Below, in pieces: positions 16,482-17,433 of a stretch of DNA of 64,000 nt (within the stretch, counting starts at the first letter, position 1; each line of letters begins with the position of its first letter). The position numbers and the translations under genes are program-made. The notes beneath the pieces were generated by a model. The model was not told the origin of the DNA. It saw only the letters and a program-made list of their open reading frames with translations, and did not search any database. The DNA lies in the NCBI GenBank assembly GCA_949358305.1, contig OX442314.1, positions 25,978,001-26,042,000 on the forward strand. The letters are read 5' to 3'. Source of the DNA: Strigamia acuminata. Lineage: Eukaryota.

Positions 16482-16918
16482 GAAACGAGAGAAAAATCGA
16501 AAATATGTAAATAAAAAAATATAATAAAACTTGGATTGAAAAATTCCAGACAGTTCCTTTTGTTTATTTTATTTTCTTTAAAAAAAAATCCAATTGTGTT
16601 CTCAGTTTTAAATAATAATAAAAACACTTATAGTGAACTCTGGTGTCAATTTGCGCAACTTGAACATCCGGATTCTCCCTTGGTTCAGACGGGGGCACCA
16701 AACGAGTAGCAGCACGAAATGGTGAACCAATATCCACAAACACACTGATGGTAGGTTTGAAAATCATATTTAAATCGTTTAAAGACCTCACCAAAATAAA
16801 AATAAAAGTAAAATTTAGTTTACGGGCAAATTTTACAATAAAAAATGTCACTAACCGCCACAAGGGCGTTGGCCCAACTAAAAACTTCATTTCTTCGTTT
16901 TTATTTCTAGATCTTGTC

Positions 16919-17083
16919 ATGGAAGTGGTCACTTTAGGCATTGGACTAAGCCTTCTTGTATTCATCATTATCTTAAACGCGATTTTCTGCTGTACTCGTT
17001 ACAAATACTACTGGAACGAACCCACAACGGGCAACAGATTCGTCTCCGTTTGGATCCAGCCGAAACAAGAACAGCCATTTTAA
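16919..17083 (+). CDS. Putative single-pass membrane micropeptide A (54 aa)
   Basis: The ATG lies 8 nt after a strong acceptor (ttatttctag| 16910). MEVVTLGIGLSLLVFIIILNAIFCC TM segment followed by RYKYY...WIQPKQEQPF. Confidence 0.55.
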   Translation: MEVVTLGIGLSLLVFIIILNAIFCCTRYKYYWNEPTTGNRFVSVWIQPKQEQPF

Positions 17084-17105
17084 AAATCAAATCAACTGTC
17101 ACATC

Positions 17106-17306
17106 ATGAGCTCGTCACACCCAGACTACTGGGCCACTTATTTGTGCCTTGCATTGATCACTTTAGTCGTGTTGCTGGCTATAATCATCATGGGAAATGT
17201 TTGTAACATTGATCCACTCAAAGGACGCAAATATTACACACCATTTACACCGGGACCAATTCAACCCGAAGAGAAGCCGAAAGGATCTGTTTCAAGCGAT
17301 GTTTAA
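17106..17306 (+). CDS. Putative single-pass membrane micropeptide B (66 aa)
   Basis: CACATCATG start context, 22 nt after the stop of ORF A. TM YLCLALITLVVLLAIIIMGNVC followed by RKYY...PIQPEEKP. AATAAA at 17414. Confidence 0.6.
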   Translation: MSSSHPDYWATYLCLALITLVVLLAIIIMGNVCNIDPLKGRKYYTPFTPGPIQPEEKPKGSVSSDV

Positions 17307-17433
17307 AACTTCATCTTTTTTGTACTTAAAAATATTTTTCGAGCATTTATTTTTATGGAATATTTTATTTCCTACAATATGTAGATTTTCATTGGTAATT
17401 TGGGACGTTTTTAAATAAATAATTTGTTTAATA

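Follow-up and report, generated by a model that had tools for sequence, protein, structure and literature searches.

A spliced gene with two tandem small open reading frames, for predicted single-pass membrane micropeptides, between DERA and a PIH1-family gene of Strigamia acuminata

The subject of this study is a small gene on the forward (+) strand of a 64,000-nucleotide (nt) stretch of Strigamia acuminata DNA (assembly GCA_949358305.1, contig OX442314.1, positions 25,978,001 to 26,042,000), the whole of which is referred to below as the window and from whose first letter all positions are counted. Our results support the existence, in the gap between DERA and a PIH1-family gene, of a small, spliced and expressed gene of its own. 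The reading that we prefer, and to which we give an even chance of being right, is that this two-exon gene yields a spliced RNA with two tandem open reading frames (ORFs), ORF1 and ORF2, which encode predicted single-pass membrane micropeptides, both likely translated from one messenger RNA (mRNA).

Results

A spliced contig bridges two small ORFs

The locus is covered by three public runs, here called X1, X2 and X3. X1 and X2 give contigs colinear with the window, in which the introns are retained; those of X3, which comes from another study, skip seven GT..AG introns of DERA and five introns of the PIH1 gene, so that X3 has the character of an RNA assembly. In this assembly, a 420-nt contig joins positions 16695-16749 to 16910-17242, runs across the whole of ORF1 and the spacer that follows it, and reaches 137 nt into ORF2. 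When the joint 16749>16910 is cut one place to the right (+1), it gives a 160-nt GT..AG intron of 30% G+C, at 16751-16910. Its donor (ATG/GTAGGT) and its acceptor (TTCTAG/) are those that a first-pass annotation had proposed from the letters of the DNA, and no other joint is reported by X3 in this stretch. These data, from one run of one study, show the splice and bridge both ORFs within a single contig.

The first exon (16695-16750) is a 5' leader, whose upstream limit is set by the reach of the X3 contig and is not a transcription start. The second exon carries ORF1 (16919-17083, 54 amino acids (aa) and a stop), a 22-nt spacer (17084-17105) and ORF2 (17106-17306, 66 aa and a stop); sizes, distance and places are all as first annotated. 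Both ORFs start with an ATG, count less than 100 codons and lie in separate reading frames. The spacer, bridged by the X3 contig, contains neither an AG acceptor nor a poly(A) signal. When five AATAAA-type variants are searched for in 16911-17460, the sole hexamer is the AATAAA at 17414-17419, which, judging by sequence alone, is the likely poly(A) signal of the gene. The earlier claims of a single AATAAA, and of no splice or poly(A) signal between the two ORFs, are thus borne out.

ORF2 has a colinear homologue

Searched exhaustively with phmmer, 1.84 billion representatives give four matches to the ORF2 peptide at E up to 0.001. One of them, P0003, is a peptide of 67 aa which matches ORF2 over its full length (E 1.7e-6, 47% identity, residues 5-66 of ORF2 being aligned to its residues 4-67). 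In the alignment of the two peptides (A1), 29 of the 66 residues are invariant: M1, H5-P6-D7-Y8, eleven positions of the helix, D36-P37-L38, K42, I52, E55, K57-P58 and the final S-V-S-S-D-V. Conversely, a tblastn search of the window with P0003 finds the ORF2 locus only (E 1.1e-12; next best, 0.039). P0003 is found in Logan only, where it forms a single-member cluster from one 1951-nt contig; it is a raw-read assembly call without a name. Furthermore, the two differences between X3 and the window that are listed for ORF2, out of three counted for that piece of the contig, are both synonymous when read from the codons: 17135 C>A (GCC>GCA, Ala) and 17175 C>T (CTG>TTG, Leu). Judged from its sequence and from that of its homologue, ORF2 is a real, conserved coding gene.

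The other searches add nothing to this family. The three remaining phmmer matches, P0001, P0002 and P0004 (789-2032 aa), are rejected as spurious, being repetitive and partial. A word-based protein search returns nothing with ORF2, and only P0003 with the profile of A1 (ORF2 and P0003). Scans of metagenomes give 589 and 276 pattern matches, none of which is confirmed, and neither the ORF1 nor the ORF2 peptide is present in a collection of 15 billion proteins.

The ORF2 peptide (MSSSHPDYW...SSDV) is built of a short N-terminal HPDYW segment, a helix at about residues 6-32 and a tail modelled as disordered. Its best 19-aa Kyte-Doolittle window is at residues 12-30 (2.88), and AlphaFold2 proposes a single helix at 6-32 (block pLDDT 89, 87), beyond which the values of the tail are largely below 50. 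The C-termini of ORF2 and P0003 are both S-S-D-V, and the last six residues, SVSSDV (codons at 17286-17303 by the alignment with P0003), are identical; they fit the class I PDZ-ligand pattern [S/T]-X-hydrophobic-COOH. A ligand cited for this class I pattern, [S/T]-X-hydrophobic, is the NMDA receptor, which ends in ESDV (PMC3504512).

Two side observations concern the same stretch of sequence. In the HMMER search, the ORF2 tail (residues 30-63, GRKYYTPFTPGPIQPEEKP) was matched to repeated ...GRKYYTNASTGETKWEKP... units of the 1685-aa P0002, which look like WW domains, and ORF1 carries, at residues 27-48, YKYYWNEPT...VWIQP, compared in the same WW-like context. A WW-like nature of the tails was rejected: there is no Pfam WW match, AlphaFold2 places no strands in the tails and P0003 lacks the motif. 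The likeness is probably due to chance. The second observation is a 73-aa ATG-started ORF on the + strand (17197-17418), which overlaps ORF2 in another frame and extends into the 3' region; it has no helix above threshold, is without support and is probably also a chance ORF.

ORF1 bears indirect signs of coding

The ORF1 peptide (MEVV...EQPF) has its best 19-aa Kyte-Doolittle window at residues 6-24 (2.66) and a pair of cysteines (CC) at residues 24-25. AlphaFold2 models it as a single helix at residues 2-32 (block pLDDT 88, 96, 86), followed by a low-confidence tail, and ORF1 is thus predicted to be a single-pass membrane peptide. The transmembrane (TM) helix claimed earlier for each of the two peptides is in this way recovered both by hydropathy and by modelling. 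In each of them the helix is preceded by a few residues of net negative charge and has K/R residues behind it, a distribution that would place the short N-terminus outside (or in the lumen) and leave the tail in the cytosol.

The G+C content of ORF1 (42.4%) is close to that of ORF2 (43.3%), the values being 30% for the intron, 29% for the upstream sequence and 20% for the 3' region. At two-fold pyrimidine-ending codons, the NNC:NNT ratio of ORF1 is 14:5 in frame, versus 7:7 and 4:13 in the other frames, and 19:71 in DERA; this preference for C-ending codons gives a binomial P of 0.013 against ORF1's own C/(C+T). The Atlas recognition value of ORF1 is 2566, for a mark of 2300. G+C content, in-frame C-ending codons and Atlas value give together indirect support to the view that ORF1 may be coding.

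The occurrence of two such ORFs was also compared with that in 3000 shuffles of the second exon, in which local composition was kept and a helix was counted when a strong 19-aa hydrophobic window was present. Two ORFs of at least 54 aa are found in 1% of these shuffles, one helix-bearing ORF of at least 54 aa in 0.07% and two helix-bearing ones in 0 of 3000.

The leader carries two minimal upstream ORFs

The list of ATGs in the spliced mRNA reveals two upstream ORFs (uORFs) of 9 codons each. uORF1 (16719-16748) ends in a TGA which overlaps the next ATG as TGATG. This second ATG (16748-16750) opens uORF2 (16748-16937): it is spliced to 16911-16937, and the reading frame ends at the TAG in 16935-16937. 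uORF2 crosses the ATG of ORF1 in another frame and stops 168 nt upstream of the ATG of ORF2, without any ATG in between.

As the fourth ATG of the mRNA, the start of ORF2 would need either leaky scanning or reinitiation to be reached. Given that uORF2 overlaps the ATG of ORF1 and stops 168 nt before that of ORF2, ribosomes translating it would bypass ORF1 and could restart at ORF2. Ribosomes leaking past the upstream ATGs would make ORF1. uORF2 itself may be translated and functional.

Discussion

Points that weigh against two peptides from one mRNA

The proposal that both peptides are made from one mRNA has several points against it, concerning (i) the transcript, (ii) translation, (iii) ORF2 and its presumed docking and (iv) ORF1, the last being taken up with the first alternative below.

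As regards the transcript, none of the three runs is recorded as RNA. Moreover, a contig built from short reads does not stand for one molecule: it may merge overlapping transcripts, and when it crosses two genes it is no proof of a single transcript. The X3 contig also departs from the window at 17242, within ORF2, with 32 unlike letters, which have no match anywhere in the window when up to 3 mismatches are allowed. X3 lends no RNA support to the 3' third of ORF2 or to the end of the gene, as it does not cover 17243-17408 at 80% likeness, a gap from which nothing is concluded; the part of ORF2 beyond 17242 is nevertheless colinear with P0003. As to the 32-nt loose end itself, it is G+C-rich, the window has no GT at this place and its length is about that of one assembly word plus one, which would suit a join with some other sequence within the assembly graph. 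It could stem from a chimeric assembly, from a variant of the strain or from a further exon.

As regards translation, an upstream ORF of 54 codons and two uORFs should depress the translation of ORF2. The 184 nt between the starts of ORF1 and ORF2 contain no ATG, where 2.0-2.9 are expected (P(0) 0.06-0.08, nucleotide shuffles). This absence is not significant and can be taken as suggestive only, because P(0) becomes 0.80 when ORF1's own codons are permuted.

As regards ORF2, P0003 is a single sequence without context, and it could be a paralogue from the same species. The docking of the ORF2 tail onto a PDZ domain is, for its part, inferred from a pattern of three residues.

ORF1 as a coding sequence or as a long leader uORF

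The first alternative, doubtful in our view and nonetheless to be weighed with care, is that the gene is monocistronic in function: ORF2 would be its sole functional coding sequence and ORF1 a long leader uORF, regulatory or incidental, with a functionless peptide. A homologue is indeed found for ORF2 only. For ORF1, none is found by the word-based protein search or by the metagenome scan, a result which counts as weak evidence because the exhaustive HMMER search was made with ORF2 and was not run with ORF1. The codon usage of ORF1 is ordinary as well: log-odds trained on 421 neighbouring DERA and PIH1 codons do not discriminate, the score of ORF1 being matched by 43% of 143 comparable ORFs and that of ORF2 being in the top 16%. 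In addition, T-rich DNA readily gives hydrophobic ORFs, since 9 of the 127 ATG-started ORFs of at least 50 aa in the whole window carry a strong hydrophobic helix, several of them within exons of likely multi-pass proteins.

A functionless ORF1 accounts poorly, however, for the other properties described above. Its G+C content equals that of ORF2 and is far above that of the non-coding flanks, and its preference for C-ending codons is specific to its frame. A helix-bearing ORF of its length is rare in the shuffles, its helix is confidently modelled and it passes the recognition mark of the Atlas.

No demonstrable paralogy between the two peptides

A different question is whether the peptides of ORF1 and ORF2 arose by ancient tandem duplication, as the first-pass annotation had suggested and as is the case in sloth1/2, sarcolamban or tarsal-less. 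We consider this unlikely. The features on which the suggestion was based, a cysteine after the helix, (Y/R)KYY and IQP, can be read letter for letter in each of the peptides, which also have a common build (short N-terminus, one helix, Cys, basic residues, tail). KYY and IQP come in the same order; two common exact 3-mers have a P of about 0.02 and a gap-tolerant glocal alignment of the tails one of about 0.03, both marginal. The Atlas gives the two peptides the same nearest clusters (TMEM52, a 70-aa hypothetical protein, stannin and CoV_E). Duplication has, besides, its precedents, as homologous ORFs are reported in 44 of the 196 bicistronic genes annotated in Drosophila (PMC9681215).

Direct comparison does not sustain the idea. 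The best BLASTP match between ORF1 and ORF2 reaches 10 bits (E 4.4), Smith-Waterman scores against shuffles give a P of 0.19 for the whole peptides and of 0.10 for the tails, and hhalign aligns the profile of ORF2 and P0003 to ORF1 with a probability of 5.8%, over 13 columns of the helix only. Nothing is thus found outside the helix. P0003, moreover, has no cysteine after the helix, and shows RRKKKF where ORF2 has GRKYYT and EIPLE where ORF2 has PIQPE; HPDY, DPL and SVSSDV, for their part, are absent from ORF1. The motifs that would attest kinship thus sit where the ORF2 family varies. That ORF1 and ORF2 may be paralogues is therefore not supported by their sequences.

One mRNA or two

The last alternative, that a second start in the intron or in ORF1 gives a transcript with ORF2 only, so that two separate monocistronic mRNAs are merged in the contig, seems to us improbable: contigs cannot reveal single molecules, starts or ends, but the ORFs are 22 nt apart around a spacer devoid of an AG acceptor and of a poly(A) signal, one contig with one depth figure extends over the splice, ORF1 and the start of ORF2, and 16749>16910 is the only joint reported in the stretch.

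A candidate PDZ-anchored peptide

A function can be sketched for the two peptides. Because the invariant S-D-V-COOH fits the class I pattern, the disordered cytosolic tail of ORF2 would dock, by this PDZ-ligand end, onto a PDZ scaffold. The docked peptide, perhaps together with that of ORF1, would then modulate a membrane protein at the scaffold. In its most extended form, this scenario would have an undescribed family of PDZ-anchored micropeptides made from a bicistronic mRNA, a start-overlapping mini-uORF as a switch dividing the ribosomes between the two unlike peptides, and the assembly of these into a heteromeric regulator of a channel, a pump or a junction protein kept at a PDZ scaffold; taken as a whole, it is a speculative proposal with little probability.

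Genomic surroundings

The left neighbour is DERA, the gene of deoxyribose-phosphate aldolase, whose last exon matches PDB sequences of DERA chains (E 4.8e-9; an earlier exon, 0.0055); a Pfam search of single DERA exons had given no match at E 0.01, and the identity was then taken from the PDB sequences. To the right, on the minus strand, lies a member of the PIH1 family (PF18201, 1.4e-9; PF08190, 2.4e-10). The placement between DERA and PIH1D1 that had been proposed for the small gene is thereby confirmed, DERA being identified by PDB sequences and the PIH1 family by Pfam. Rfam gives no match on 16400-17900 at E up to 1, and the gene is therefore not read as a host of small nucleolar RNA. A repeat scan of the region shows nothing of note, and tblastn finds no second copy of the ORF1 or ORF2 peptide in the window.

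Some observations were made on the neighbours. A contig of the PIH1 gene (minus strand) ends at 17409 and a minus-strand ATTAAA lies at 17432, close to the AATAAA (+) of the small-ORF gene at 17414-17419. The 3' ends are convergent, and the two mRNAs would therefore share some 20-30 nt at their tails. One X3 joint of the PIH1 gene, at 18262-18321, reads GC..AC on the + strand, versus CT..AC in the other four, and has one extra letter between its sides; either the site is non-canonical or X3 differs from the window there. Within an intron of the same gene (17482-17835), the segment 17584-17690 has a word depth of about 25600 versus about 350 in X1, and of about 7700 versus about 85 in X2, both of them DNA-like runs, with many loose ends at 17628, 17634 and 17684 and a 15-nt tandem at 17634-17664. 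Its core is single-copy in the window, and the segment looks like a genome-wide high-copy repeat. Further away, an exon of an anoctamin (TMEM16) gene is found on the minus strand at 20638-20904 (PF04547, E 5.3e-26).

Resemblance to known families

Neither peptide belongs to a described family, as Pfam, the word-based search and the Atlas give no membership for ORF1 or ORF2; this agrees with the undescribed pair inferred in the first-pass annotation. No named family was found for either peptide, it being understood that the literature was compared by words, which cannot show that the peptides are unpublished. The best Pfam match of ORF1 is SPAR (PF22004), with three weaker ones. Residues 1-40 of ORF1 are aligned to positions 1-40 of the 75 of the SPAR profile, with an E of 0.0099 and 16.1 bits, versus a gathering score of 27. 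Like SPAR/SPAAR (small regulatory polypeptide of amino acid response), ORF1 is a small membrane peptide with an N-terminal helix, but we do not retain it as a member, as the match is below the gathering score and made mostly by the hydrophobic helix. ORF2 and P0003 have no SPAR match, and nothing in Pfam below E 0.2. The families FXYD, KCNE and SMIM, with which a comparison had been suggested, have no Pfam match to ORF1, ORF2 or P0003 at E up to 10, a limit at which the HMMER filters drop most matches above about 0.1.

The same is true of stannin (SNN)/hemotin and TMEM52, which also have no Pfam match at E up to 10 and are look-alikes by features only. The Atlas scores (one value per peptide where paired) are 0.91/0.89 for TMEM52, with a range of 0.88-0.91, 0.90 for SMIM36, 0.88/0.86 for stannin and 0.84/0.88 for CoV_E. 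These look-alikes have 143-163 of 256 features in common, same-family matches having mostly at least 170, which therefore indicates resemblance and not membership. The likeness to hemotin/stannin, TMEM52 and SMIM36 consists of a very short N-terminus, one helix, a juxtamembrane cysteine with basic residues, and a short tail, for a total of roughly 60-90 aa; hemotin itself is an 88-aa small-ORF peptide (PMC4807881).

Significance and comparison with other bicistronic small-ORF genes

Annotation routinely overlooks small-ORF genes, and ORF2 has for its only relative an unnamed call in an assembly of raw reads. The locus described here adds a clean and testable case, in which two unlike membrane micropeptides would be carried by one short RNA. 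The conserved C-terminal docking motif points to a class of partners, the PDZ scaffolds, and the geometry of the uORFs in the leader gives a specific, checkable prediction on how the downstream ORF would be reached. The general understanding of such genes is unchanged, as Drosophila already provides well-documented bicistronic small-ORF genes.

Two named precedents of polycistronic small-ORF genes are tarsal-less/pri/mlpt and sarcolamban (PMC9681215, PMC13670568), and Tribolium is reported to have 35 candidate polycistronic small-ORF genes (PMC13670568). As is proposed for the RNA described here, those of tarsal-less/pri/mlpt and sarcolamban are arthropod RNAs with several small ORFs per transcript. 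Their ORFs are, however, repeated copies of one type of peptide, whereas two longer and unlike peptides would be encoded here. The tal peptides are of 11-32 aa and the Scl peptides of 28-29 aa.

The closest parallel in layout is offered by sloth1/sloth2 of Drosophila (CG32736/CG42308; human SMIM4 and C12orf73), which encode peptides of 79 and 61 aa with one TM each, 5 nt apart, the downstream one being translated by leaky scanning, as reporter assays showed (PMC9681215). Both loci have two tandem ORFs of less than 100 codons with one predicted TM helix each and a very short spacer (5 nt in sloth, 22 nt here), and in both the downstream ORF would be reached past the upstream one. They differ in several respects. 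There is no sequence relation, as neither ORF1 nor ORF2 matches such a Pfam family at E up to 10, and two tiny uORFs precede ORF1 here. sloth1 and sloth2 are 27% similar and are taken as paralogues, whereas ORF1 and ORF2 have no detectable kinship. Finally, the sloth peptides are mitochondrial complex III factors, whereas the conserved S-D-V of ORF2 suggests a PDZ-scaffolded site at the membrane.

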